Of a stretch of DNA of 64,000 nt, positions 30,401 to 64,000 are shown one piece after another. This DNA is from an uncultured Clostridia bacterium (GTDB lineage: Bacteria > Bacillota > Clostridia > TANB77 > CAG-465): contig CANRGL010000002.1 of assembly GCA_947630145.1 (NCBI GenBank), positions 8,437-72,436 of the forward strand, in the 5' to 3' direction. The position numbers and the translations under genes are program-made. Under the pieces are notes generated by a model. That model saw only the letters and a list, made by a program, of their open reading frames with translations. It was not told where the DNA came from and did not search any database. Every line of letters begins with the position of its first letter. The first letter of the stretch is position 1.

Positions 30401-31195
30401 TTAAGTATTGTTTTTTATTAAATATATTTTAAAAATTTCTTTTAAGTAATCTATAAATTCAGATTTTTTCACAGATTCTGATAAAACTATATCACTTTCT
30501 CCTACCTTTTCATTAGTTTCTTTATTAAATATTTCAATTTTTCCAACGGCATCTGAAATGTTTAAAGGTGCACATATGTTATCATCAAATGTTATTTTTT
30601 CTATTGTATCTAATTTAGCTCCTTTATCAGATAATATAGAAATATCATCTTTTATGATAACTTGTTGCTTTTTACCAACACATTTATTTACTTTTATATC
30701 ATCCACTACAACATTTTTTTCACAAACTTTTTTTACTTCATAATTAGAAAATCCGTAATCTAATAACATTTTTGTTTCTTCTAATCTTACATTACTTGAT
30801 GGCGCTCTCATAATAACTGCAATAAAAGTAGTTCCATTTCTTGTGGCAGTACCTGATAAATTAAATAATGCCTGTGATGTTGAGCCTGTTTTTAATCCAT
30901 TTGCTCCCTCATAAAAACGTATTAATTTATTTGTACTATTAAGTCCAAAAGTTCCATTTCTTAAAGTATCTTGCCAAATAGATGTATATTTTAGTATATT
31001 AGGATGTTTGGTTATAAGTTCTCTAGACATTATTGCGATATCTTTAGCAGTAGTATAATGCCCTTCTTCATCTATTCCATGAGAATTTTTAAAGCATGTA
31101 TTTTCCATTCCTAATACTTTTGCTTTATCATTCATCATTTTAACAAAATTTTCTTCACTACCACCAATTTTTTCTGCAACAGCAACTGTAACATC
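30401..31195 (-). pseudogene. D,D-carboxypeptidase (PBP5/DacB/DacF-like), C-terminal part of a split gene
   Basis: The frame is open upstream of the listed Met: ...DVTVAVAEKIGGSEENFVKMMNDKAK.... Contains the 'LKTGST' KTG box and the C-terminal beta-sandwich domain. Confidence 0.85.
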
Positions 31196-31248
31196 TCTAT
31201 GGGTTAAATCATGCAGGAAAAAGTTTTATTACTATATATAATTTTTTA

Positions 31249-32547
31249 TTACAATAAATTTTTAATATATTCAATCATAAATAACGGAATATTAATTATT
31301 TTTCCATTTTTACTTAAATTATTCATAGAAAATCTAATAGATAAATCATTTTTAAATTTTTCATTATATCTTGTCAAACTTATATTATTAGTAGAAATAT
31401 TTGATTTTACTTCAATTGGAATTATATTATTTTTGTATTGCATAACAAAATCAATTTCGTGTCTATCAAAAGTAAAATAATTTGGAACTGTATTAAAAAC
31501 ATATACTAACATATTAAGTACATAATTTTCTGTAAAAGCACCTTTAAATTCTTCAAATAATTTATTTTTCTTTATAATAATATTACTATCTAAATTTGCC
31601 ATTTTCCTAAGTAATCCAATATCATTTATATATATCTTAAAACTACTTAAATCATAATATGCTTTAAGAGGAAAATCAGTTTTGTTTACATTATATATTT
31701 TATATATTAAATTTGCATCATTTAACCAATTTAGTGCACTTTCATATTCTCTTGCTCTAGCTCCTTGTTTTACTGTTTGATATAAGAATTTTTTATTTTC
31801 TTTAGCAAGTTGAGATGTTATACTATTCCAAATTAGTGAAATTTTATTTGCCTCACTATTTTCAGTATGTTTAGAAAAATCTGATTCATATGCAGTTAAA
31901 ATATCCTCTTGTATTTTTGTAACTTTTTCTATATCCTTTTCCATAATCCAAGAGTTTACTACTTCTGGCATTCCACCTATTATAAAATACATTTTTAATT
32001 TTTCTTCTAACTGATTGAAAAATATATCAGGAATATTATTTATACTATTAATTGATTTTAAGTATTCTACTAAATTTTCATTTCCATTTGCAATTAAAAA
32101 TTCACTAAATGTCATTGGATACATATTTAAAAAATCTACTTTACCAACAGGAAATGATGTGTGTGACAGTCTTATCCCAAGCAGACTACCAGCACATACT
32201 ATATGATATTCATTTGCTTCTTCGTTAAAATATTTTAGACTATTTAGTGCATCTGGACACTCTTGTATTTCATCAAATATAATTAAAGTTTTTTCTTTTA
32301 AAATTGCTTTACCATATATAAATGCTAATTGCTCTATTATTCTATTTGGAGATTTTGTATTTTTAAATAGATTATATAAGTCTTTATCATGATCAAAATT
32401 AAAATATGCTACTGATTCATAATACATATCTCCAAATTGTTTTAGTATATATGTTTTTCCAACCTGTCTTGCACCTTTTAAAATTAAAGGTTTTCTATTC
32501 TTACTTTCTTTCCATTTTATTAATTCGTCTAATATAAATCTTTTCAT
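31249..32547 (-). CDS. AAA ATPase with DUF4143 / nuclease-like C-terminus (AAA_14 family)
   Basis: Walker A 'GARQVGKTY', Walker B 'LIIFDEIQ', and a C-terminal 'EIDFV...PIEVK' PD-(D/E)xK-like motif. Confidence 0.8.
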   Translation of the reverse strand: MKRFILDELIKWKESKNRKPLILKGARQVGKTYILKQFGDMYYESVAYFNFDHDKDLYNLFKNTKSPNRIIEQLAFIYGKAILKEKTLIIFDEIQECPDALNSLKYFNEEANEYHIVCAGSLLGIRLSHTSFPVGKVDFLNMYPMTFSEFLIANGNENLVEYLKSINSINNIPDIFFNQLEEKLKMYFIIGGMPEVVNSWIMEKDIEKVTKIQEDILTAYESDFSKHTENSEANKISLIWNSITSQLAKENKKFLYQTVKQGARAREYESALNWLNDANLIYKIYNVNKTDFPLKAYYDLSSFKIYINDIGLLRKMANLDSNIIIKKNKLFEEFKGAFTENYVLNMLVYVFNTVPNYFTFDRHEIDFVMQYKNNIIPIEVKSNISTNNISLTRYNEKFKNDLSIRFSMNNLSKNGKIINIPLFMIEYIKNLL

Positions 32548-32655
32548 TTAATTTCTCCATTCCAGTTATATTATATACCATTTTCACATTTTTGTAAACA
32601 TTTTTTAATAAAAAATCACATTTTGACAAATAAAGTATAAAATTCAATCACATTT

Positions 32656-34182
32656 TTACAATTTAGAAAAGTTATAATAAACTTGTACATGTTCTTTAGA
32701 TATATCAATTCTATAAATTAGTTTATCTATTAATTCTTTGCTTATATTATTTCCTAATTCTTGTTCTTTATTTTTTAAAATATTTTTCAATTCAATAATA
32801 TCTTCATTTTCAAAATTCTTTTCTATAAATTCGCATTCTTTTATTTCAGCTTTTATTTCTTCTCTTTTAGCTTTTAAAGATTCTGTATTTTTTAAATATT
32901 CATTTTTAGTTATTTTTTCATCTAATAATTCCATATACATAAAGTCAATATTATCATTTATTCTATTATAATCGAAATTTAACTTTTTTATTCTTTTGCT
33001 TATACTTATTATATTATTTTCTTTCTTTTTTAAAAGTATTTCATTTTCTGCTTTAGAAAAATCAAATAAATTATTATAATGTTCTTTTATATTATCTAGT
33101 ATTTTCTTTTCTAACTTATAATAATTATAATAAAAAGTATCACAACAATGTATTTTAGATTTTGGACAAGATATATCTACTTGTTTTTCACTTCTTGTAT
33201 TAAATTGTACTTTTCTTCCACATTTTGCACAGTAAAGATAAGGTCTTAATAAATAGTTATATTTTAATCCTAAATTTTTTCCATTTTTAGACTTTATAAT
33301 TTCTTGTACTTTATAGAAAACATCTTTATCAATAATAGCTTCGTGCATATTTTCAGTAATAATCCATTCTTTCTCATTTGTTTTCTTTTTATATTTTGAT
33401 TTATATGATATTTTGTTTATAACATTTCTTACAACATTTCCTATATATACCTGATTTTTAAGAATTCTAAGTATTTGTGTACTTTTCCAAACTTTATAAG
33501 TATTCATATCTTTATATTGAATAATAATATTATAATATTCAGCTGGTGTCTTAATTTTTTTGTTATTTAAGTATTTAGCAATATAACTAAAGCTTTTTCC
33601 ATTTAAATACATATTAAATATTTTCTTTACTATATTACTAGAATATTTTTCTACTAATAGCTTTCCTTTATTATTAGGGTCTTTTATATATCCGTATGGT
33701 GCGTATGTTCCAGTATAAACTCCTTTTTCCATATTAGCTCTTTTACTTTTTTTCATTTTCTCTGATACATCTCTTGCAAACTTTTGGTTATTATATAATT
33801 TAAACTCTAAAAGTTCATTTGCAAGTTTATCTAAATATGTATCTACATTATCTAAAACTGCAATAAATCTAATATCATATTCAGGAAAAATTTTTTCTAT
33901 ATAATCTGCCCCATTTATAGATTCTCTTGCAAATCTTGATAAATCTTTTACTATTACAGTATCAATAACTTTATTTTTTATATCTTCTATCATTTGCTTA
34001 AAAGCAGGTCTATTAAAATTTGTTCCACTATATCCATCATCAATATATTCTTTTTTTATTTTAACACCAATATCTTCTGCATATCTAGTCAGTAATTTTC
34101 TTTGATTAGTAATACTCTCACTTTCAATTTTATCTCCATCTTCTTTAGATAATCTCATATATATACTTACATTATTAAACAT
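32656..34182 (-). CDS. Large serine recombinase (downstream copy)
   Basis: 'YMRLSKEDGDKIESESITNQR' catalytic Ser region, recombinase domain, Cys zinc-ribbon 'CAKCGRK...CPKSKIHCC', coiled-coil tail. Confidence 0.9.
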   Translation of the reverse strand: MFNNVSIYMRLSKEDGDKIESESITNQRKLLTRYAEDIGVKIKKEYIDDGYSGTNFNRPAFKQMIEDIKNKVIDTVIVKDLSRFARESINGADYIEKIFPEYDIRFIAVLDNVDTYLDKLANELLEFKLYNNQKFARDVSEKMKKSKRANMEKGVYTGTYAPYGYIKDPNNKGKLLVEKYSSNIVKKIFNMYLNGKSFSYIAKYLNNKKIKTPAEYYNIIIQYKDMNTYKVWKSTQILRILKNQVYIGNVVRNVINKISYKSKYKKKTNEKEWIITENMHEAIIDKDVFYKVQEIIKSKNGKNLGLKYNYLLRPYLYCAKCGRKVQFNTRSEKQVDISCPKSKIHCCDTFYYNYYKLEKKILDNIKEHYNNLFDFSKAENEILLKKKENNIISISKRIKKLNFDYNRINDNIDFMYMELLDEKITKNEYLKNTESLKAKREEIKAEIKECEFIEKNFENEDIIELKNILKNKEQELGNNISKELIDKLIYRIDISKEHVQVYYNFSKL

Positions 34183-35769
34183 CTAATTTATTAAATTAAT
34201 CTCCCTAAAATTAAATATTATTTCTATATTTTTATCTTTATCTATATATATTTTATCAACTAATCTATCTAAAGTTTCTCTTGAGATTTTTTTAGAAAAG
34301 TCCAAAGTTTTTAATACTTTTTTTAATGATTTATCATTTAACTTACTATCTTTTTCTTCATAATTTTTTTTATATTCACTTTTTAGATTTTCTAACGAAT
34401 CTTGAATATTTTCTTTTCTTTTTTTTAATAAATCTGATATTCTGTTATAATCCTCATCTGAAATTATATTATCTAGTTTATCTATATAAGACCTATCTAG
34501 TTTTTGATTGCATTTTTCAATTTCTTTTTCAAAGTTTTCTATTCTATTTCTATATTCTTCTAATTTTTTTCCTAATAAAGCTTTATTTTGAGCTCTAATT
34601 TTTGATAAATTTACACTATTTAAATATTTATCAACTATTTTATTTATTTCTGATAATATTTTTTCTTCTACATAATCATAATTAAAATATTTTTTAGTAC
34701 ATTTTTTTACTCCAACCTCCTTTATAGCTGTAGGACACATTCCATATCTTCTAATAGTTACTTTATCTTTATATTTTTCTTTTTTTGTCACCCAAGTGAT
34801 AGAACATCCACAATCTTTACATTTAACAATTCCTCTTAACAAATATTCGTATTTACTTATTTTACTTGATTTATTTGCCTCTAATTTTTTTAAAACTAAC
34901 TCAAAATCTTTTCTATTTATAATGGCATCATGAGTATTTTTTGTTACAATCCATTCCTCAGGGGGTAGATTTATTACTTTTTTGCTTTTATAATTTATTT
35001 TTCTTTGCTTATTAAGTACAGTATCGCCAACATAAACCTCTTTTTGTAAAATTCTTTTAACAACTGCCGGATACCATTGTTTAGTTATACTAGTACAATT
35101 TTTTCTATTTGTAGATGGAACATTAACCTTTTCCTCATTAAGTTTTTTTGCTATTTGATAAGTTCCCATTCCATTTAAAAACATATCAAAAATTCTTTTT
35201 ACAATTTTGCTTTCTTCTTCATTAATAATTAAGTGTCCTTTTTTATTTGGATCTTTCATATAACCAAATGGAGCTTCAACAGATACATATAGTCCATCTT
35301 TTTTCTTATTATATAACATTGCTCTAAATTTTCTTGATGTATCTTTACAGTATAAATCATTTAATACTGCTTTTAAAGGTAACATATCATCTGTTTCTGT
35401 TATAGTATCTACTTCATCATAAATAGCAATAAATCTAACATTATGTTCAGGAAAATATCTTTCTAAATATCTTCCTACTTCTGAATAATCTCTACCAAGT
35501 CTTGATAAATCCTTTACAACTACCATATTAATTTTATTTTCTTCAATTTCATTTTTTAACTCTAAAAATGCAGGTCTATCAAACTTGAGTCCTGAAATTC
35601 CATCATCCACAAATTCCTTATAGTTTTTCAATCCATTTTCTTTACAAAATCTTTCAAGTATATTTCTTTGATTAGTAATGCTCTCACTTTCGCTCTTATC
35701 TCCATCCTCCTTAGATAATCGTAAGTATAGTCCTACTTTGTAATCTTTGTTAATTTTAAAGATGTTCAA
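34183..35769 (-). CDS. Large serine recombinase (upstream copy)
   Basis: 'YLRLSKEDGDKSESESITNQR', 'CKDCGCSITW...CP' zinc ribbon, coiled-coil tail. TTG start after AGGAGGG preferred. Its stop abuts the next ATG. Confidence 0.9.
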   Translation of the reverse strand: MNIFKINKDYKVGLYLRLSKEDGDKSESESITNQRNILERFCKENGLKNYKEFVDDGISGLKFDRPAFLELKNEIEENKINMVVVKDLSRLGRDYSEVGRYLERYFPEHNVRFIAIYDEVDTITETDDMLPLKAVLNDLYCKDTSRKFRAMLYNKKKDGLYVSVEAPFGYMKDPNKKGHLIINEEESKIVKRIFDMFLNGMGTYQIAKKLNEEKVNVPSTNRKNCTSITKQWYPAVVKRILQKEVYVGDTVLNKQRKINYKSKKVINLPPEEWIVTKNTHDAIINRKDFELVLKKLEANKSSKISKYEYLLRGIVKCKDCGCSITWVTKKEKYKDKVTIRRYGMCPTAIKEVGVKKCTKKYFNYDYVEEKILSEINKIVDKYLNSVNLSKIRAQNKALLGKKLEEYRNRIENFEKEIEKCNQKLDRSYIDKLDNIISDEDYNRISDLLKKRKENIQDSLENLKSEYKKNYEEKDSKLNDKSLKKVLKTLDFSKKISRETLDRLVDKIYIDKDKNIEIIFNFREINLIN

Positions 35770-35839
35770 ATAATCCCTCCTAACAAAGCTACTTATCAAT
35801 AAAATGATATATTATTCTAGTTTTAAAAGTCAATTCCTT

Positions 35840-35935
35840 TTAAGAATCTAATTCTTTTAAAAGAAGTTCCTCTATAATTTCTTGAAAAGTAGGACCATTA
35901 TCATTAAATTTATATGTTACATTATATTCATCCAT
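35840..35935 (-). CDS. Tiny ORF (31 aa) upstream of the recombinase pair
   Basis: MDEYNVTYKFNDNGPTFQEIIEELLLKELDS, with a GAGG-like RBS. Below the ORF-track cut-off. Confidence 0.3.
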   Translation of the reverse strand: MDEYNVTYKFNDNGPTFQEIIEELLLKELDS

Positions 35936-36197
35936 TTTCTGCACCTCTCTACATATTATTAAAATTTAATATTTTTAGAACATTACTTTTTATTTCTTTC
36001 TTTTTCTAATCTTTTCAACTCACTATATATTTTGTTTACAATCTTCTTTCAGGATTTCTTCTTTTTTACATATTTTAAAATTAAAAGCAATATAATTAAT
36101 GGCATTTCCAAATTGAAATTGTGTTTTATAATTATATATATTTTTTAATGTACAATGAAAAGATTTTTAGTGTCTTTACTATTACACGTTACATTTA

Positions 36198-36226
36198 TTG
36201 AACTTTTTATATTCTTTTGTTATAAT
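36198..36226 (+). promoter_or_regulatory. Sigma-A-type promoter for the Nudix gene
   Basis: TTGAAC, 17-nt spacer, TATAAT. It lies inside the long version of the track ORF, which favours the ATG at 36254. Confidence 0.6.
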
Positions 36227-36253
36227 ATTGAATATTATATAGGAGTTTTGATT

Positions 36254-36739
36254 ATGGAAGATATTGAAATAAGAATTAATAATAAAAAGTTTAAGTATAG
36301 GGTTAATGGTATAGTTTTGAAAAACAACAAAATTCTAACATTAAGAATGAAAAATAATATATCATATTGCTTACCAGGTGGACATGTAGAACTAGGTGAA
36401 GACAGTAATTCTGCAATTATTAGAGAAATGCTTGAAGAACTAGATACAAAAGTTACAATAAAAAAAGAACTTGCAATGGTAGAAAATTTTTACAAAGATA
36501 AAAATAATTTACTGACTCATGAAATAAGCTTTTACTATATTGTTGTTCCTGAATCTTTTTCTAAAATACCCTTAGAAAATTATTCAAGATCTGAACATGA
36601 TAAAGGGCAGTTAAAGCAACATAATTTTGTATGGTTAAATTTAGACAATATAACAGACTTTGATTTTAGGCCATCATTTATTAAAGATAAGCTAGTTAAT
36701 AACAATTATGATTTTGAACATATTATAGTAAAAGATTAA
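36254..36739 (+). CDS. Nudix hydrolase
   Basis: Nudix box 'GGHVELGEDSNSAIIREMLEELD' (GX5EX7REUXEEXGU); AGGAG RBS. Confidence 0.85.
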   Translation: MEDIEIRINNKKFKYRVNGIVLKNNKILTLRMKNNISYCLPGGHVELGEDSNSAIIREMLEELDTKVTIKKELAMVENFYKDKNNLLTHEISFYYIVVPESFSKIPLENYSRSEHDKGQLKQHNFVWLNLDNITDFDFRPSFIKDKLVNNNYDFEHIIVKD

Positions 36740-36986
36740 TAGCTATATTTTCTTTTATCTAATAATTTTTTTATTTGAAGTTGCTGTAAAAAAGTCCAAT
36801 AAAAAATTAGGTTTGTATCAAAAATATGATATAAATCTAATTTTTTGATCTTATATTTATAATATAAATAATTTTTATTGATATATTTCTTTTTTTGATA
36901 CAACAAAAGGGGACTTTTTTACACCCCCTTCTAAATTATCAATACTTTCAACAGATATATTTGTATACTTTGTTTTGCTTTATTCT

Positions 36987-37484
36987 TCAATTTTCATTAT
37001 TATTTTTTTCTTTTATTATATCTTTTATAAATTCTGGTAAATTGGTAAATGTAGCTACTATACCTTTATTTGTAAGTGCAAATATATCTCTTGTTTTTTT
37101 ATTTATTTCTTCCTTTACTGCTTTAGGGACTTTAATAGATATTCCTGCTTTTTTATATTCTTGCTCTATGTATTTCTCTAAAGTTGGAAACATATTTTGA
37201 ATTAGAAAAACTGCTTTTTTCCCAGCTAAATTTCTTGCAAAGACAAAATTATTAGGTTCTATACCTTTTTTCAATTTAATATCATTATATACTTTTAAAT
37301 ATTTATCATATTTAGAAGACATTGGCACAAACCATAATATGTTTTTGTCTGTTTTATCTCTAAAACAAAAATAAGTTGGCCTTTTTGTACCAGTTTGTTT
37401 ATTTTCCATCAAATGATATTTTTTATTATACTTATTTATAAACTCATCCTTTATAAAATATAATTTTCCCTCAGTTATTTCCAT
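36987..37484 (-). CDS. ToxN/AbiQ/CptN-like endoribonuclease toxin (type III TA)
   Basis: 'KLYFIKDEFINKY...', '...ILWFVPMSSKYDKY' and 'LIQNMFPTLEKYI' parallel ToxN 'KFYTISSKYIEYL', 'YLAPLTSPK' and 'INLKFMIPIIE'. About 165 aa. Preceded by a repeat RNA plus terminator. Confidence 0.6.
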   Translation of the reverse strand: MEITEGKLYFIKDEFINKYNKKYHLMENKQTGTKRPTYFCFRDKTDKNILWFVPMSSKYDKYLKVYNDIKLKKGIEPNNFVFARNLAGKKAVFLIQNMFPTLEKYIEQEYKKAGISIKVPKAVKEEINKKTRDIFALTNKGIVATFTNLPEFIKDIIKEKNNNEN

Positions 37485-37499
37485 TTTACTCCTCATACA

Positions 37500-37626
37500 A
37501 TAATAAGGGAGTACTAAACTCCCTTATTTATTCACCAGTGTATTTTCTCTTTGCCAACTGGGTGGCTGTTATATCGTTTATCTAGGGTATTTTACTCTTC
37601 GCCTCCTAGTAGGCAGTTTTATTTAT
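37500..37626 (-). ncRNA. Candidate type III antitoxin RNA: two divergent ~47-nt hairpin repeats plus terminator
   Basis: Unit A CUAGG-AGGCGAAGAGUAAAAUAC-CCUAG; unit B CACCCAGU-UGGCAAAGAGAAAAUAC-ACUGGUG. The loops are conserved and the stems covary. The own promoter is upstream; the hairpin ends 6 nt before the toxin RBS. Confidence 0.5.
37502..37528 (-). terminator. Hairpin between candidate antitoxin RNA and toxin ORF
   Basis: 11-bp perfect stem 'aataagggagt'/'actcccttatt' with a 5-nt loop. The U-tract is weak. Confidence 0.5.
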
Positions 37627-37632
37627 ATAATA

Positions 37633-37661
37633 ATTATAGCATTTAATTGTTCAATTGTCAA
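37633..37661 (-). promoter_or_regulatory. Consensus sigma-A promoter driving the RNA-toxin module
   Basis: On the minus strand: TTGACA (37661-37656), 17-nt spacer, TATAAT (37638-37633). Confidence 0.7.
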
Positions 37662-37840
37662 TAATTTTTAATAATATTTCTATAATTATTATATATTATA
37701 TGATATGAAACTTATAAATATATAATACGAATATTTTTAATTTTTAAGTAATTTTATAAGTAAATTATATTTTTTACAATTTTCAACTTTGATAAATAGC
37801 TTATTTTCAATATTTTCTTTCCTGCTAAAATTTAACATAC

Positions 37841-38286
37841 ACATCATTTGCAGAAACTACACATATTGCTTTTAGAGCTTCATCAACTGTCAGTTCTTCA
37901 TTTTCTTTAAACCATATTTGAGATCCTCCCATTTTTGAAGCTTTAGTACTACATTTTATTTTATCTTGATATGTCATTTTCCCAGAATCTATTTGTTCCA
38001 TAGTAAGTAACAATGTCATAATCTTTGTTACAGATGCTGGTAATAATTTTTCATTTTCATTATTAGCATAAAGTATTTCTCCTGTTGTAGGCTCCATTAA
38101 AACTTGTGCTTCTGATTGAAAAGAAAATTCAGGATTACTTGCAAGTGTGCTTATACTACTTGCTTTTGTTTCTTTATTTTTATTTATAGGATACATATAT
38201 GTTGCAAATACAAAATTACCACTTAATAAAAACAACATAAACAAAGCTATACTTATTTTTTTTATTTTAAATATCAAATCAATCAC
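37841..38286 (-). pseudogene. D,D-carboxypeptidase, N-terminal part of the split gene
   Basis: Signal peptide, SxxK 'SVTK' and SxN 'SAND'. After ...SANDV the frame runs into the element (YVKF*). Confidence 0.85.
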
Positions 38287-38402: not shown

Positions 38403-38903
38403 TTATGCATCTGCACCAGTTGGTCCTTGTGGTATAGTTAAATTAAGAACAAAATTTGGTGCACTTCCTTCAATTGTTGCAGCAGCCTGAGTACCTGGCA
38501 AACCAGTTGTAACTTGACCTATTGTAATACTTGGAGTAAGTCCATCAGTACCGGCTGGCCCTTGTGGTCCTTCTGGACCTATTGCACCTTGAGGTCCTAC
38601 CGCACCAGTTGCACCTTGTGGACCTGTTGGTCCTTGTGGTCCTTGAGGTCCGGCTGGTCCTGTTGCTCCTGCTGGACCAGTTGCCCCAGTTACACCATTA
38701 GCTCCAGGTAATCCTTGTAATCCTGGAACACCTTGTGGACCTGTTGGTCCAATTGGTCCAGGAACACCTTGAATACCTTGAACACCTTGAGGTCCTGTTG
38801 CACCAGTAGGACCTGTCATACACATTACTCCTGTTGGAGTAGGACAAGGATTAGGAAAAGGTCTACAACCACCCATAAAATCACAAGAATTGTAGTTATT
38901 CAT
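38403..38903 (-). CDS. Collagen-like triple-helix repeat protein (BclA-like)
   Basis: About 30 uninterrupted GXY triplets ([16 protein letters not shown]...), a Cys/Pro-rich N-terminus and a short non-collagen C-terminal domain. Confidence 0.8.
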
Positions 38904-39002: not shown

Positions 39003-41999
39003 TTATCTAATATTTCTTTCATTCATTATTTTAGAACATACTGGACATAAATATCTATATTTTATATCCTTTCCAAGATCTTGAGAATAGTTTTTACATC
39101 TTTTGCATTCCATTCCTTCTGCAATTTCTATTTTTATATAACTATCATCTGAAATTTCTGTTTTCAATACTGATACATTAAGTGATCTTAAAAAGTCCTC
39201 ATGATTTGAATCTATGAAATTCTTTGTACTTTCATTTACACCTAATATAACTTTAGCTTGTAAAGAATTTTTAATTTTTCTACTTATTATTTCCTTTTTT
39301 AACTGTTCATTAACTTTTTTTATTATAAAGAATATATTATCCCATTTCTTTATTGATTCACTATATTCATCTTTGTTTACTAATTTTAAATCACTTCTAG
39401 TTAATAATATATTCCCTTCTTCCTCAGCACTATTATGCCATATATATGTCCATGTTTCCTCAAATGTAAAAGGAATAATAGGCTCAAGGAATTTTAAAAG
39501 TGTCATGAATATTTCATATAAAGTTGATTGTGTACTTCTTCTTTTCTTATCATTAAAATTTAAAACATATAATCTAAATTTAATAATATTAAAATATTTT
39601 CCACACAAAACTTCTCTACAATATTTATATATAACGTCAAAAACATTATATAAATCTAAATTATTATAGCTTTCTTCTAATTTTTCTTTTACCTCATAAA
39701 GTTTTATATACATATATTTGTCTAAATCATCTCTATCTGAAATTGGAATCACATTTTTTATAGGGTTAAAATCAGAAATATTGGATATTATAAATTTAAT
39801 TGTACTTCTTATTTTTCTATATATTCTGTTAGTATATAATATACTAGATTCATTTAAATTACTATTTTTATTACTTCTTTGTATACACCACAAACGTAGT
39901 ATATCAATACCATATTTCTTTACTATACTATCAACATTAAAACTCTTGTCTACATTTTCTTCATTTTTTACATCTAAATTATTAGGTTTTGCATTTTGTA
40001 TATTTTTATTAGTTTTTCCAAGATAAAAAAATGTTTTACTTTTCTTTTCCTGTTTTTCCTTACTAATATCATTATCAACATTTTTAACATCATTATTGGA
40101 AACTTCTTCCTTATTTTTATCGTCTTTATTATCTACAATATTAACCTTTGAATGTAATAAAATGTTATTAATTTTACATACTTGTTCTAGACTATCCTCA
40201 TCAAAACTAAATGATATGATTTTTCTTATAAAATCTTCATAATTTTCTATGCAAATATCTATTTTATTTATATCGTTATTATTTGAATTGTTAGTATTTT
40301 TATTTTCTCTTATTAAAGGAATACACATATATTTAAAGAAACTATTTATTGTACTACTTCCTTTAAATAAAAAAGTACAACCACAGTTATTACATTTTAC
40401 TTTACCTTGAAATATTTCTTCAGGAGTTTCCTTAAACCATGATTCAATTCCTCTGGTATTAAATACATTTTTTAAAGTTGAAATAGACTCTTCAGTAATT
40501 ACCTCACTTGAGCATTCTGCACAATACAACATTGGTAAAGGAATACCAAAATTATCTTCACTAGAAATAACCTTTTCTTTATTTTTTATACTATTATATA
40601 GCTTTTGTTTAATAATATCTTTATTTTCCGCAGAGCATTGACTTATTTTAGATATAATACTATCAAATGATTGTTTTAATTTTTCATCATCAGCTGTCTT
40701 TTTTAAATACCATACCTGTTCAGATCTAAGTATTACTTCTTCATTGCATTCTTTACATCTAGAAATTTTTAATTGTATATTATCTGTACATAAAATTCTC
40801 TTGTTTTGTTTTAACATTTCTATAACTTTAGTATTACATTGTTTATAATCCATGTTCTTAAAGTTATATGCAAGCATGGTAGTCTTACCTTCTTTAGTTA
40901 AATTATTATTTATTTTTACGGCTATATTTTCTTTTGAAACTAAATAATCTATATATAAATTCCCAGAAGATATTATTGAGATTCCTGACGATTTTTTATC
41001 ATTTGCCATAATATATTCTTTTTTTACTGGAATGACTTGAAGATCCTTAGCATTATCTACCACACTTTTACAAGTCATACCTATAAGTTCACTACCTAAA
41101 ACTTTTTTCTTTACTTCGTATTTTATAAAAAATGATAAGTCCATTATATAATCAACATTTTCAGAAGAAATAATATAATGTACTTTTTTATCATTTTGAC
41201 TTACCTCTACAACACTATATTCCATATCTTCAATTACTGATAAATTATTATCAAAATCAAGTACCCATGGTTTAGTAACATTAGCCACAAAATATGTGTT
41301 TTCTAAATTATTTAATTCCTTAAAAACATCTTTATCATAACTAACTTTAAAATTTAAAAAATAATTAATTACATTTTCATTCTCACGTTTAATATCTTCT
41401 CTTTCTGGAGTTTTATTACAATGTGCACACCAACTTACAGGCCTCAATTTATGATATATTTTATTATCATTATACAATTTCCAAAATTTATCAATTACTC
41501 TTGCTTCAAATCCTGAATTAAGAGTTGAACTATTGAAATTTCCGTAATCAATAATAGTTCCTAAATTTTTAATCTCTTGAATTTGTTTTTTTGCACTTTC
41601 GCTAAGTTCTTTCTTTTTTAATTCTCTTTTTTTTATAAGTTCCTGCGTTTTTGCAGATTTATTTGTCTTATCTTCTAGTATATTATATATATATGCAAAA
41701 TCAATATTATGATTAACTTTATTACCATTTAACAGTCTATACCTTATTACAATATCTTTTAATATTTTATTTTGTATACATGTAGGATCTATGTCATCTT
41801 TTATCATAACAGGATTCTCTAATATATTATATAAAGTATTACTAGACTCATTTTTCTTTAATACTTCTCTATATCTTCTAACATCTTGAATCCTTGCTAA
41901 AAAAAACGTTTCTTTTTTTGGAAGATCGGCATTAGTTGCAATTGTCTTTTTAGGCAAGTTCATAGTGTCAGAAAAATCAACCTTATCATTTATTTTCAT
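39003..41999 (-). CDS. Isoleucyl-tRNA-synthetase-like protein lacking HIGH and KMSKS (probable pseudoenzyme)
   Basis: Colinear with type-1 IleRS: 'NLPKK', 'NKILKDIVIRY', 'FGIPLPMLYC', 'KKYGIDILRLW', 'YRKIRSTIKFIISNISDFNP', C-terminal 'CKRCKNYSQDLG...LCPVC'. But 'DIDPTCIQNK' replaces 'GNxHxGHALNK', and an Asn/Lys-rich insert sits where KMSKS should be. Confidence 0.75.
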   Translation of the reverse strand: MKINDKVDFSDTMNLPKKTIATNADLPKKETFFLARIQDVRRYREVLKKNESSNTLYNILENPVMIKDDIDPTCIQNKILKDIVIRYRLLNGNKVNHNIDFAYIYNILEDKTNKSAKTQELIKKRELKKKELSESAKKQIQEIKNLGTIIDYGNFNSSTLNSGFEARVIDKFWKLYNDNKIYHKLRPVSWCAHCNKTPEREDIKRENENVINYFLNFKVSYDKDVFKELNNLENTYFVANVTKPWVLDFDNNLSVIEDMEYSVVEVSQNDKKVHYIISSENVDYIMDLSFFIKYEVKKKVLGSELIGMTCKSVVDNAKDLQVIPVKKEYIMANDKKSSGISIISSGNLYIDYLVSKENIAVKINNNLTKEGKTTMLAYNFKNMDYKQCNTKVIEMLKQNKRILCTDNIQLKISRCKECNEEVILRSEQVWYLKKTADDEKLKQSFDSIISKISQCSAENKDIIKQKLYNSIKNKEKVISSEDNFGIPLPMLYCAECSSEVITEESISTLKNVFNTRGIESWFKETPEEIFQGKVKCNNCGCTFLFKGSSTINSFFKYMCIPLIRENKNTNNSNNNDINKIDICIENYEDFIRKIISFSFDEDSLEQVCKINNILLHSKVNIVDNKDDKNKEEVSNNDVKNVDNDISKEKQEKKSKTFFYLGKTNKNIQNAKPNNLDVKNEENVDKSFNVDSIVKKYGIDILRLWCIQRSNKNSNLNESSILYTNRIYRKIRSTIKFIISNISDFNPIKNVIPISDRDDLDKYMYIKLYEVKEKLEESYNNLDLYNVFDVIYKYCREVLCGKYFNIIKFRLYVLNFNDKKRRSTQSTLYEIFMTLLKFLEPIIPFTFEETWTYIWHNSAEEEGNILLTRSDLKLVNKDEYSESIKKWDNIFFIIKKVNEQLKKEIISRKIKNSLQAKVILGVNESTKNFIDSNHEDFLRSLNVSVLKTEISDDSYIKIEIAEGMECKRCKNYSQDLGKDIKYRYLCPVCSKIMNERNIR

Positions 42000-42071
42000 A
42001 ATATCCCTCTTATTAATATAATTTGTTGTTTTTCTCATTATATCAGATTTTTTTTATTTTTTCAATACAAA

Positions 42072-42119
42072 ATCTAAAAGATAAATATAAACTAAATCTA
42101 AAAGATAAATATAAACTAA
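42072..42119. repeat. Perfect 24-bp tandem duplication (x2)
   Basis: 'atctaaaagataaatataaactaa' occurs twice in the 87-bp gap upstream of the IleRS-like gene. Confidence 0.85.
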
Positions 42120-42125
42120 AACATA

Positions 42126-62257: not shown

Positions 62258-64000
62258 TTAATGAATATTACTTCCATTTTCTAAAAATCCTTCATTATTA
62301 TCAAGAGTTAATAATTTTACAACATCATTATCTCCTGCTGCAAGTAGCATTCCATTAGATTCTACTCCTCTAAGTTTTGCAGGTTTTAAATTAGTCACAA
62401 CAACTACTTGTTTATTTAAAAGTTCTTCCTCTTTATAGAAAGGTACTAATCCAGATACTATTGTTCTTAAATTTTCTTCTCCTACATCAACTGAAAGCTT
62501 GTATAATTTATCAGATTTTTCTATTTTGCTTACTTCTTTTATTTGTCCTACTTTAAGTTCAACTTTATCTAGCTGATCTATTGTAATAATTCCTTTAGTA
62601 TCTTCATTTTCTTCTTCATCATCTTTTTTGTCTAAGTTTTCATTCATCTTTTTAATCTCCTCTTTAATGTCTATTCTTGGAAATAAATTATCACCTTTTA
62701 TAACTTTAGTACCTTCTTTTAAAAGTCCAAATTCTTTTGCATCATCCCAATTTGTTATATCTAAATCCACTCCTATTTGTCTAAATATTTCATCTGGGAC
62801 ATCAACCATATATGGACGAAGTAAAATTCCTATAATTCTTATACATTCTACAAGATTATATAAAACTACATTAAGTCTATCTTTATCTCCCTGTTTTCCA
62901 AGTATCCATGGCATAGATAAATCAATATATTTATTTGATTTATCTATTAGTTTCCAAATTTGTGTAATTGCATCATTTATTTTTAAATCATCCATTAATT
63001 TCTCTACTTCTATAACAGTATTTTTTGCAAGAGCTATTAATTCATCATCATATTCTTCTTTTTTATTTCCTTTACATACTATTCCGTTATTATACTTTAA
63101 TACCATTGCAGTAACACGACTTACTAAATTACCAAGGTCATTAGATAAATCAGAGTTGGATTTTTCCAAAAATAACTCTTCTGAGAAATTTCCATCTTGC
63201 CCTAAAGTTATTTCATGAAGTAAAAAATATCTTAAAGCATCCCTTGAAGTAGCATTTATATATATTCTAGGATCTTTGTAATTACCAAATGATTTTGAAA
63301 TTTTATTTCCATCTACTACAAGCCAACCATGTCCATATATTTTTTTAGGAAGTGGTAAATTAAGTGCCATAAGTAATGCCGGCCAAATCATAGCATGAAA
63401 TCTAAAAATTTCTTTACCAACAAGATGTAAATCTGCTGGCCAATATTTATTCATATTTAAGTCATTTTCACTTAAATAGCCAAGTCCAGAAATATAGTTT
63501 GAAAGAGCATCAATCCATACATAAACAGTATGCTTTTTATCAAAAGGTACTTCTATTGCCCATTTAACTCCCGTTCTTGAAACGCAAAGATCTTCTATGC
63601 CTTTTTTAAAGAAATTATTTATAAGCTCATTTTTTCTAGATATTGGCTCTAAGAACTCTGGGTTTTCCTCAAAATATTTAATAAGCCTATCTTGATATTT
63701 TGAAAGTCTAAAAAAGTAACTTTCTTCTTTTACTAATTCTACTTCTCTACCACAATCTGGACATTTTCCATCTACAAGTTGTGTTTCAGTCCAAAAAGAT
63801 TCACATGGAGTACAATATAGTCCTTCATATTCTGATTTATAAATATCTCCACTATTATATAATTTTTCAAAAATTTTTTGTACACATTCTACATGCTCTT
63901 TATCAGTAGTTCGAATATACTTATCATAAGTAATTCCTAAGTCTTCCCATAATTTCTTTGTATCACTTACTATATCATTAACATACTCTTTTGGAGTTAT
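62258..64000 (-). CDS. metG: Methionyl-tRNA synthetase (5' end beyond the window)
   Basis: The frame stays open upstream of the listed Met (...HTVYVWIDALSNYISGLGY...KYWPADLHLVGKEIFRFH). 'KISKSFGN' KMSKS variant; C-terminal Trbp111-like tRNA-binding domain. Confidence 0.93.
   Translation of the reverse strand: MTPKEYVNDIVSDTKKLWEDLGITYDKYIRTTDKEHVECVQKIFEKLYNSGDIYKSEYEGLYCTPCESFWTETQLVDGKCPDCGREVELVKEESYFFRLSKYQDRLIKYFEENPEFLEPISRKNELINNFFKKGIEDLCVSRTGVKWAIEVPFDKKHTVYVWIDALSNYISGLGYLSENDLNMNKYWPADLHLVGKEIFRFHAMIWPALLMALNLPLPKKIYGHGWLVVDGNKISKSFGNYKDPRIYINATSRDALRYFLLHEITLGQDGNFSEELFLEKSNSDLSNDLGNLVSRVTAMVLKYNNGIVCKGNKKEEYDDELIALAKNTVIEVEKLMDDLKINDAITQIWKLIDKSNKYIDLSMPWILGKQGDKDRLNVVLYNLVECIRIIGILLRPYMVDVPDEIFRQIGVDLDITNWDDAKEFGLLKEGTKVIKGDNLFPRIDIKEEIKKMNENLDKKDDEEENEDTKGIITIDQLDKVELKVGQIKEVSKIEKSDKLYKLSVDVGEENLRTIVSGLVPFYKEEELLNKQVVVVTNLKPAKLRGVESNGMLLAAGDNDVVKLLTLDNNEGFLENGSNIH

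Follow-up and report, generated by a model that had tools for sequence, protein, structure and literature searches.

A 64,000-nucleotide stretch of DNA from an uncultured Clostridia bacterium (contig CANRGL010000002.1, positions 8,437 to 72,436; G+C content approximately 25%; hereafter the window) contains a minus-strand gene, here termed pseudo-ileS, that encodes a 998-residue relative of type-1 isoleucyl-tRNA synthetase (IleRS1). We propose that its product is a non-catalytic, full-length IleRS1 paralogue, i.e., a pseudoenzyme, that probably binds tRNA; we put the probability of this reading at roughly 55%. Such a protein would be unable to make Ile-tRNA or to clear Val-tRNA(Ile), and a working IleRS would consequently have to be encoded elsewhere. 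It would bind RNA without catalysis, most likely by docking its C-terminal half onto the anticodon arm of tRNA(Ile), and would act in the bound state as a tRNA holder, chaperone, or regulator. A first-pass annotation of the window had likewise taken the gene for an IleRS-derived pseudoenzyme rather than the housekeeping ileS. This view is supported here by extensive motif loss (61 of 83 conserved positions of the catalytic core), by degeneracy across the whole family, by ratios of non-synonymous to synonymous substitution rates (dN/dS) of 0.09–0.15, and by a conserved sigma-A promoter together with the lack of a T-box.

Ancestry, lost motifs, and retained domains

On sequence and predicted structure, the protein is a folded, full-length homologue of IleRS1. 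It matches the Pfam models tRNA-synt_1, Anticodon_1 (full length, 65 bits), and, weakly, zf-FPG_IleRS (18.4 bits; cut-off 21.3). Against the TIGR00392 ileS equivalog model it scores 238.7 bits, where the cut-off for a functional isoleucine--tRNA ligase is 621.4. The best sequence matches in the PDB were the IleRS1 enzymes of P. megaterium (8c9e/f) and S. aureus (1ffy), with alignments that fall into two blocks and skip the KMSKS region. An AlphaFold2 model built with the family alignment as input (predicted local distance difference test, pLDDT, 76; predicted template modelling score, pTM, 0.69) adopts the IleRS1 fold and superposes on 8c9e (TM 0.68/0.72) and on the S. aureus tRNA complex 1qu2; a single long stretch, residues 625–684, is modelled as disordered (pLDDT 25–29). 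The colinearity with type-1 IleRS that the first-pass annotation had described therefore holds along the full length of the protein. Together with the fold, the CxxC...CxxC zinc domain, and the placement in a phylogenetic tree, it assigns the protein to the IleRS1 clade by descent. Membership of the IleRS2/MupA/MupB group is not indicated, given that neither NF000257 nor NF000258 matched and that IleRS2 stands apart in the tree (100/100 support).

Alignments to canonical IleRS1 and to 8c9e show that neither the aminoacylation pocket nor the CP1 editing pocket retains its signature residues (Table 1). The HIGH and GWDTHG positions read DPTC and DFAYIY, in agreement with the first-pass reading of the surrounding segments as DIDPTCIQ and NIDFAYIY, and the KMSKS loop has indeed given way to an Asn/Lys/Asp-rich insert that is predicted to be disordered. 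The insert is hypervariable in both length and sequence, with a mean pairwise identity of 0.17 within the family. The equivalents of H71 and G73 of HIGH are kept in none of the 22 family members, PPYANG-x-HIGH is replaced by NPVMIKDDIDPTC, and WCISRQRxWG is replaced by KVISSEDNFG. The first-pass annotation had allowed that functional equivalents might have been overlooked; profile alignment placed none, and scans of the whole protein with HMMER, MAFFT, and regular expressions found no hidden HIGH or KMSKS equivalent. The losses also go beyond those recognized at first pass, extending to WCISRQR, to EGxDQHRGWF, and to the editing motifs of CP1. The editing-site His is missing from all family members, and with it a recognizable CP1 post-transfer editing site.

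Conservation was quantified by selecting positions with at least 90% conservation among 22 canonical IleRS1 sequences and scoring them across 22 family members. The two Rossmann halves and the KMSKS region contain 83 such positions, of which the family has kept 15 and lost 61; for CP1, 10 of 48 are kept and 23 lost. AT bias is ruled out as the cause of these losses, in line with the first-pass annotation, since valS, located 13 kb away in the same window, is canonical (HIGH and KMSKS present; 1168 bits against a cut-off of 704). The other control that it had invoked, a perfect MetRS, stands only in part: metG (62258–64000, minus strand) runs off the end of the window, so that its KMSKS equivalent can be read (KISKS) while HIGH lies outside.

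The regions that contact tRNA in IleRS1 have fared differently. Across the stem-contact fold, the anticodon-binding domain, and the zinc domain, 23 of 37 conserved positions are kept and 10 lost, and the first two of these domains retain 18 of 28 canonically invariant positions. Pairwise identity within the family is highest in the stem-contact fold, at 0.47, followed by the anticodon helical domain, at 0.46. For the latter it exceeds the value in the canonical set (0.40), whereas the Rossmann fold shows the opposite (0.35 vs 0.51 canonical). Three Cys4 zinc sites (residues 191/194/415/418, 493/496/536/539, and 965/968/985/988) have all 12 cysteines invariant in 22 members. The last of them is the C-terminal CxxC...CPxC knuckle reported at first pass, which is thus upheld by its four invariant cysteines, though its Pfam score lies below the cut-off. 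These patterns of conservation show that selective constraint has moved from chemistry to the stem-contact fold and the anticodon-binding and C-terminal zinc domains.

Family, selection, and expression

A word-indexed search recovered at least 17 family clusters at the 90% identity level, with 31–62% identity. An exhaustive hidden Markov model search of 1.84 billion representatives found approximately 14 full-length family representatives at 50% clustering, with scores well separated from canonical IleRS, and every motif was missing from all of them. The hosts are named in record titles as 'uncultured Clostridium sp.' or 'Clostridia bacterium', and all members come from AT-rich uncultured Clostridia. 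One cluster (P0004) comprises 673 sequence variants, and one member (P0121) is indexed in 138 assembly-collection blocks. In a neighbour-joining tree, the family was monophyletic (100/100 bootstraps) and nested in IleRS1 (94/100), with a root-to-tip path approximately three times that of canonical IleRS.

We compared orthologues, as the first-pass annotation had suggested, to estimate dN/dS. Five P0121 contigs were identical at the DNA level and hence uninformative on within-species synonymous variation; more distant cluster members were compared instead. The ratio was 0.088 (dS 0.14) between P0121 and P0134 (loci L003 and L088) and 0.145 (dS 0.23) between P0136 and P0135 (L089 and L090), i.e., purifying and similar to that of neighbouring genes. 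Flanking genes gave 0.06–0.23 (ybeY, dgkA, cdd, spoIID, and others for L089 vs L090; AAA_14 for L003 vs L088), and flanking spoIIID showed zero non-synonymous change. These substitution patterns show that pseudo-ileS is an old family under strong purifying selection. In one copy (L009 995–3941, from the GTDB representative metagenome-assembled genome (MAG) CANRQA01), the reading frame shifts after approximately codon 56 within an A-rich run; this is likely an error of the MAG consensus, since the close relatives P0014 and P0149 are intact.

The upstream region revises the gene's start. The longest uninterrupted open reading frame (ORF) spans 39003–42038 on the minus strand (1011 aa), and its first ATG, at 42038, had been taken as the start. 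However, this ATG sits within the -10 box TATAAT, so the real start is the second ATG, at 41999. The database protein P0001, which is 100% identical over 998 aa, present in NCBI, Logan, and ENA, and encoded on a 77.8-kb metagenome contig, also starts there. Purine-rich ribosome-binding sites similar to that of the studied gene precede the start codons of its orthologues (AGAGGGA, or GAGAGG in L089 and L090). The promoter is near-consensus (11 of 12 positions match), the leader measures approximately 35 nt, and the intergenic gap to the true start is 126 nt rather than the 87 bp given at first pass. Transcription is predicted to begin approximately 7 nt beyond TGATATAAT in the downstream direction. 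TTGAAA-17-TGATATAAT is kept in six lineages (the L003, L088, L089, L090, and L008 orthologues besides the studied gene), and a seventh, L314, keeps at least the -10 element TGATATAAT. Since the spacer around this motif diverges among orthologues while the motif itself is conserved, the comparison argues for constitutive transcription from a sigma-A promoter of the gene's own.

The first-pass annotation was right that no T-box leader is present: between 38800 and 42900, neither a T-box nor any other Rfam family matched even at E ≤ 5, and the T-box (RF00230) was also absent from five orthologous pseudo-ileS loci examined. The sole T-box in the window precedes valS, and T-boxes precede the canonical ileS genes of L010, a type-1 Clostridium, and of L177, a type-2 Clostridium that is AT-rich. 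On the evidence of its upstream region, namely the sigma-A promoter, the short leader, and the lack of a T-box, pseudo-ileS expression is uncoupled from tRNA charging. The 24-bp tandem duplication described at first pass is real and lies just upstream of the -35 element. We considered it as a regulatory feature and rejected it, as the duplication is species-specific and absent from orthologues; a single related element, TTTAGTTTAT, occurs unduplicated in L003 and L008. Given this lack of conservation, the repeat probably arose when an AT-rich element upstream was duplicated locally.

Table 1. Positions of pseudo-ileS, its upstream elements, and its altered or retained regions in the window.
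Feature	Position	Strand	Basis or remark
Pseudo-synthetase coding sequence, IleRS1-derived	39003..41999	minus	998 aa plus stop; ORF, identical database protein P0001, gene calls on ENA and Logan contigs
Two tandem copies of 24-nt unit tttagtttatatttatcttttaga	42073..42120	minus	copies at 42120-42097 and 42096-42073; just upstream of -35
Sigma-A-type promoter	42037..42065	minus	TTGAAA (42065-42060), 17-nt spacer, TG-extended TATAAT (42045-42037)
Ribosome-binding site AGAGGGA	42004..42010	minus	sequence read; 4 nt (42003-42000) between site and ATG 41999
HIGH position, aa 71-74, now DPTC	41778..41789	minus	alignments to canonical IleRS1 and PDB 8c9e
GWDTHG position, aa 100-105, now DFAYIY	41685..41702	minus	alignments
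CP1 editing Thr-rich WTTTPWT position, aa 240-246, now NVTKPWV	41262..41282	minus	alignments
Editing motif GTGxVHxAPGHG position, aa 337-348, now SSGISIISSGNL	40956..40991	minus	alignments; catalytic His lost
EGxDQHRGWF (Ile/adenylate pocket) position, aa 585-594, now ENYEDFIRKI	40218..40247	minus	alignments
Asn/Lys/Asp/Glu low-complexity insert replacing KMSKS loop, aa 621-688 (~68 aa)	39936..40139	minus	predicted disordered
Stem-contact fold and helical anticodon-binding domain, aa 689-860	39420..39935	minus	pLDDT 80-93; most conserved part of family
Junction domain and C-terminal treble-clef zinc-binding domain, aa 861-998	39006..39419	minus	Cys965, 968, 985, 988 invariant
Wobble-stacking Trp position, now Lys969	39093-39095	minus	alignments

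Two proteins of one subclade, P0155 and P0157 (locus L314 8001–11972), carry an extra tail of approximately 320 aa that is of low complexity and either Glu/Lys-rich or Asn/Asp-rich. Both tails end in the identical C-terminal peptide KLGMFEDSFRD, an arrangement resembling a docking motif on a flexible tether. Apart from the family, three further metagenomic IleRS1 lineages from the exhaustive search are degenerate. P0162 has TLGH in place of HIGH and has lost KMSKS; P0173 has lost the synthetic site (HIGH and KMSKS) and largely kept the editing motifs; P0186 has lost all motifs yet falls outside the core family. The wobble-stacking Trp is missing from all three as well, its place being taken by K, R, H, or L as in the core family. 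The existence of these lineages suggests that decay of IleRS1 may be recurrent.

Anticodon reading and alternative roles

In the zinc domain, the Trp after the first CxxC was present in all canonical sequences examined and is K, R, H, or L in 22 of 22 family members. The protein studied here, which has Lys969, thus departs from the IleRS1 module for recognition of the tRNA(Ile) anticodon. This Trp (S. aureus W890, E. coli W905) stacks on wobble base 34, and with Arg or Lys in its place the IleRS of Mycoplasma or of mutant E. coli can accept the UAU anticodon (PMC3575796). Because the residue is replaced in every member, reading of base 34 may have been either relaxed or retuned, perhaps in favour of tRNA(Ile2), which decodes AUA.

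Several observations weigh against a tRNA-binding pseudoenzyme. The case for tRNA binding is drawn from conservation of the C-terminal half, and the zinc knuckle at the end of this half is modelled with low confidence (pLDDT < 50 for aa 964–989). Loss of the wobble Trp would fit just as well with a protein that has no further need to read the anticodon. No tRNA genes were found near family members, and several searches for a second, functional ileS of the same genome found none. Furthermore, most lineages place pseudo-ileS between a DUF3298/PdaC-like membrane protein and dacB, a location that may point to some role that has nothing to do with tRNA.

The main alternative, which we consider possible if somewhat doubtful, is that the protein is non-catalytic and selected for something other than tRNA binding, serving as a scaffold or regulator through its IleRS fold. 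Candidate partners would be the active IleRS, the adjacent cell-wall or spore-cortex enzymes, or a small molecule in the remodelled pocket. In the usual gene order, yabP-yqfD-ybeY-dgkA-cdd-DUF3298/PdaC-like is followed by pseudo-ileS and then dacB, and the last three of these stay together in deep subclades. Such synteny can also be explained by the general colinearity of related genomes, and it is broken in the P0017 lineage, where pseudo-ileS lies between rpe/DUF362 and scpB as part of a compact cluster of housekeeping genes; given this different context, the neighbourhood gives no firm functional clue. The gene moreover has its own promoter. A role in protein contacts would fit the conserved KLGMFEDSFRD of the disordered P0155 and P0157 tails, which is typical of protein-docking motifs. 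It would also fit the new, family-specific invariant residues of the former catalytic half (e.g., N50, F101, E260, and Y275), the universal loss of the wobble-reading Trp, and the precedents set by HisZ and other proteins resembling aminoacyl-tRNA synthetases (aaRS) (PMC9437257). The strongest constraint nevertheless falls on the domains that bind the tRNA anticodon arm in IleRS1, and this favours the tRNA-binding reading.

A narrower version of tRNA binding is an appealing long shot, namely that the family is a dedicated non-catalytic handler of AUA-decoding tRNA(Ile2), derived from an ancestral IleRS1 and retained once charging had passed to a type-2 IleRS. With a basic residue in place of the wobble Trp, the protein would serve as a holder or escort of tRNA(Ile2), or of the CAU precursor before its modification, and the tRNA would be kept from MetRS or fed to TilS or IleRS2. 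Across 29 long ORFs of the window, AUA accounts for 70 per 1000 codons (7%) and 61% of Ile codons, compared with 2.5 per 1000 for ATC. As AUA is the commonest Ile codon, tRNA(Ile2) must be a major tRNA in this organism, which makes a role centred on it an attractive refinement. Were this so, tRNA chaperoning would be a separable function of a class I synthetase, open to selection. The family also bears on the unsolved problem of how genomes of extreme AT-richness manage such heavy use of AUA.

We consider it very unlikely that the protein is a stand-alone trans-editing factor that hydrolyses Val-tRNA(Ile), or that it soaks up mupirocin or another antibiotic directed at IleRS as a decoy or sponge. 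The predicted model retains the CP1 fold, and P0173 shows that editing motifs can persist when HIGH and KMSKS are lost, but in pseudo-ileS the Thr-rich editing motif and the His of GTGxVHxAPGHG are gone. Resistance paralogues of IleRS are known (PMC5388404, PMC9437257); here, however, the residues of the adenylate and mupirocin pocket are lost, so that neither substrate nor drug has a recognizable site. Neither PADLOC defence-system models nor resistance models matched pseudo-IleRS.

Class I synthetase chemistry, together with an Ile content of 11.5% of codons in the window, leads us to infer that a working IleRS is encoded elsewhere in the genome. No other ileS lies within the window. A generic scan of genomes for IleRS motifs listed the hosts L008 and L009 among its matches, without a canonical IleRS1 or a second ileS, which is weak negative evidence. 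In a degenerate DNA pattern scan of metagenome contigs, the known samples were not among the matches listed, and a last profile search returned only family members that were already known. Type-2 IleRS sequences were retrieved through MupA, from plasmids and IMG/VR contigs. Through these, a large clade of Clostridium/Clostridiaceae MAGs with AT-rich genomes was found to carry a canonical IleRS2 of 1036–1053 aa, with G+C content at third codon positions of 0.15–0.17 compared to 0.13–0.19 for pseudo-ileS, and one subgroup (L177) has the T-box mentioned above. By analogy with these compositionally similar MAGs, a plausible guess is that the working enzyme is a type-2 IleRS; in the contig and cluster listings compared, IleRS2 carriers and pseudo-ileS hosts had no contig, sample, or MAG in common.

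It is highly improbable that pseudo-ileS itself encodes the organism's only working IleRS, with a radically non-canonical active site. The lack of another ileS in the window, or of one linked to any host genome, would fit this explanation, as would the strong purifying selection and the label 'isoleucine--tRNA ligase' that NCBI and JGI give to some members. PGAP, however, labels the P0017 orthologue merely 'class I tRNA ligase family protein', and the TIGR00392 score is 239 bits against 621. HIGH, KMSKS, PPYANG, GWDTHG, WCISRQR, and EGxDQHRGWF are all lost, and the KMSKS loop is a hypervariable, disordered insert. The editing site is lost too, a defect that would be lethal where Ile must be told from Val; the branch has three times the canonical length; and there is no T-box. 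The Ile content likewise makes a crippled IleRS implausible. Finally, the idea of a decaying relic, i.e., a functionless pseudogene in the making after displacement by another IleRS, is hardly tenable: it would account for the long branch, the lost motifs, and the frameshift near codon 56 in L009, but the ORF of approximately 3 kb is intact in more than 25 lineages with mutual identity of only 29–63%, dN/dS is 0.09–0.15, the promoter and ribosome-binding site are conserved, the zinc cysteines are invariant, and the frameshift falls in an A-rich run of a MAG consensus whose relatives P0014 and P0149 are intact.

Known relatives and genomic surroundings

HisZ and other catalytically inactive aaRS paralogues resemble the pseudo-ileS product, as proposed here, in that an aaRS scaffold is under selection for a non-charging role beside a working synthetase (PMC9437257). 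Archaeal LeuRS-I, which is listed with HisZ, still makes leucyl-adenylate and is therefore non-canonical rather than inactive. Insect SLIMP is a further catalytically inactive aaRS paralogue. In contrast to pseudo-IleRS, HisZ, LeuRS-I, and SLIMP derive from HisRS, LeuRS, and SerRS, respectively, and HisZ is truncated and has a known partner, HisG, whereas pseudo-IleRS keeps the full multi-domain protein.

Among IleRS proteins, the closest comparison is with IleRS1 itself (8c9e; S. aureus 1ffy/1qu2), within which the family is nested. The two share full colinearity, the fold, a CP1 domain inserted in the Rossmann fold, three zinc sites, Anticodon_1, and the C-terminal treble-clef zinc domain. 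They differ in that the pseudo-ileS family lacks the aminoacylation and editing signatures, the KMSKS loop, the wobble Trp, and the T-box, and evolves approximately three times faster. SbzA, a Streptomyces IleRS-like aminoacyl transferase that depends on Ile-tRNA, is likewise an IleRS homologue with a non-housekeeping, tRNA(Ile)-dependent job (PMC6331615). Unlike the pseudo-ileS family, it is related to type-2/Thermus IleRS, keeps HIGH and KMSKS, charges weakly, and belongs to a biosynthetic cluster. IleRS2/MupA offers a parallel as a second ileS homologue in a Firmicute genome; these are active enzymes with a different C-terminal domain, whereas the pseudo copy is of type 1, catalytically dead, and without a match to MupA or MupB models. 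The Mycoplasma mobile enzyme has an Arg at the zinc-domain Trp site, where the pseudo-ileS family has K, R, H, or L. In the IleRS of M. mobile and M. haemofelis and in E. coli W905R, the basic residue opens recognition of the UAU anticodon (PMC3575796), but the Mycoplasma proteins are active synthetases.

IleRS ranked among the most evolutionarily stable synthetases in a survey of >2500 genomes (PMC5388404), and the simultaneous presence of two genomic ileS genes has been described as unique to Bacillaceae (bioRxiv 10.1101/2022.02.09.479832). A review that tabulates IleRS paralogues gives IleRS2/MupA and SbzA alone (PMC9437257), and no IleRS-derived pseudoenzyme was found in our full-text literature searches or in the papers then consulted. 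The family thus appears to be an undescribed, full-length, doubly inactivated class Ia synthetase, akin in kind to HisZ-type paralogues. Since an IleRS1 without either catalytic centre stays under purifying selection across diverse uncultured Clostridia, the non-catalytic parts of a class Ia synthetase can be selected on their own. The family offers a natural separation-of-function mutant for asking which roles IleRS1 has besides charging. It also has a practical consequence: where such a gene in a MAG is wrongly labelled 'isoleucine--tRNA ligase', it can go unnoticed that the real ileS is missing or of another kind.

The genes next to pseudo-ileS show rearrangements of their own. Directly downstream lies a gene for a collagen-like (GxY repeat) BclA-type protein (38403–38903, minus strand) that is absent from this place in orthologous loci. 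Beyond it, dacB, which encodes a D-Ala-D-Ala carboxypeptidase, is cleanly split within 30410–38271: residues 8–158 are encoded at 38271–37840 and residues 153–418 at 31207–30410. The 6.6-kb insert between them (31208–37839) carries two large serine recombinases, an AAA_14/DUF4143 ATPase (PADLOC candidate PDC-S01), a NUDIX protein (PDC-S07), and a 169-aa ORF; it resembles either a skin-like intervening element or a defence island of small size. A conjugative element interrupts the corresponding 5' part of dacB in the P0121 species.

The loci of P0121 and P0136 (L003 and L089) share 6.6 kb of flanking DNA that is 83% identical, with 88% and 98% protein identity for YbeY and DgkA, respectively. 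Their pseudo-ileS proteins are only 50% identical, and the downstream genes differ (dacB vs spoIID). The pseudo-ileS gene tree conflicts with the similarities of the flanks. This discord points to recombination or allele replacement with a breakpoint adjoining pseudo-ileS.

A separate protein surfaced on Ralstonia solanacearum megaplasmids (records H22–H28). It is approximately 490 aa long, annotated as a 'class I tRNA ligase family protein' or a hypothetical protein, and matches only the middle of IleRS1 (residues 143–686); it is unrelated to the pseudo-ileS family.

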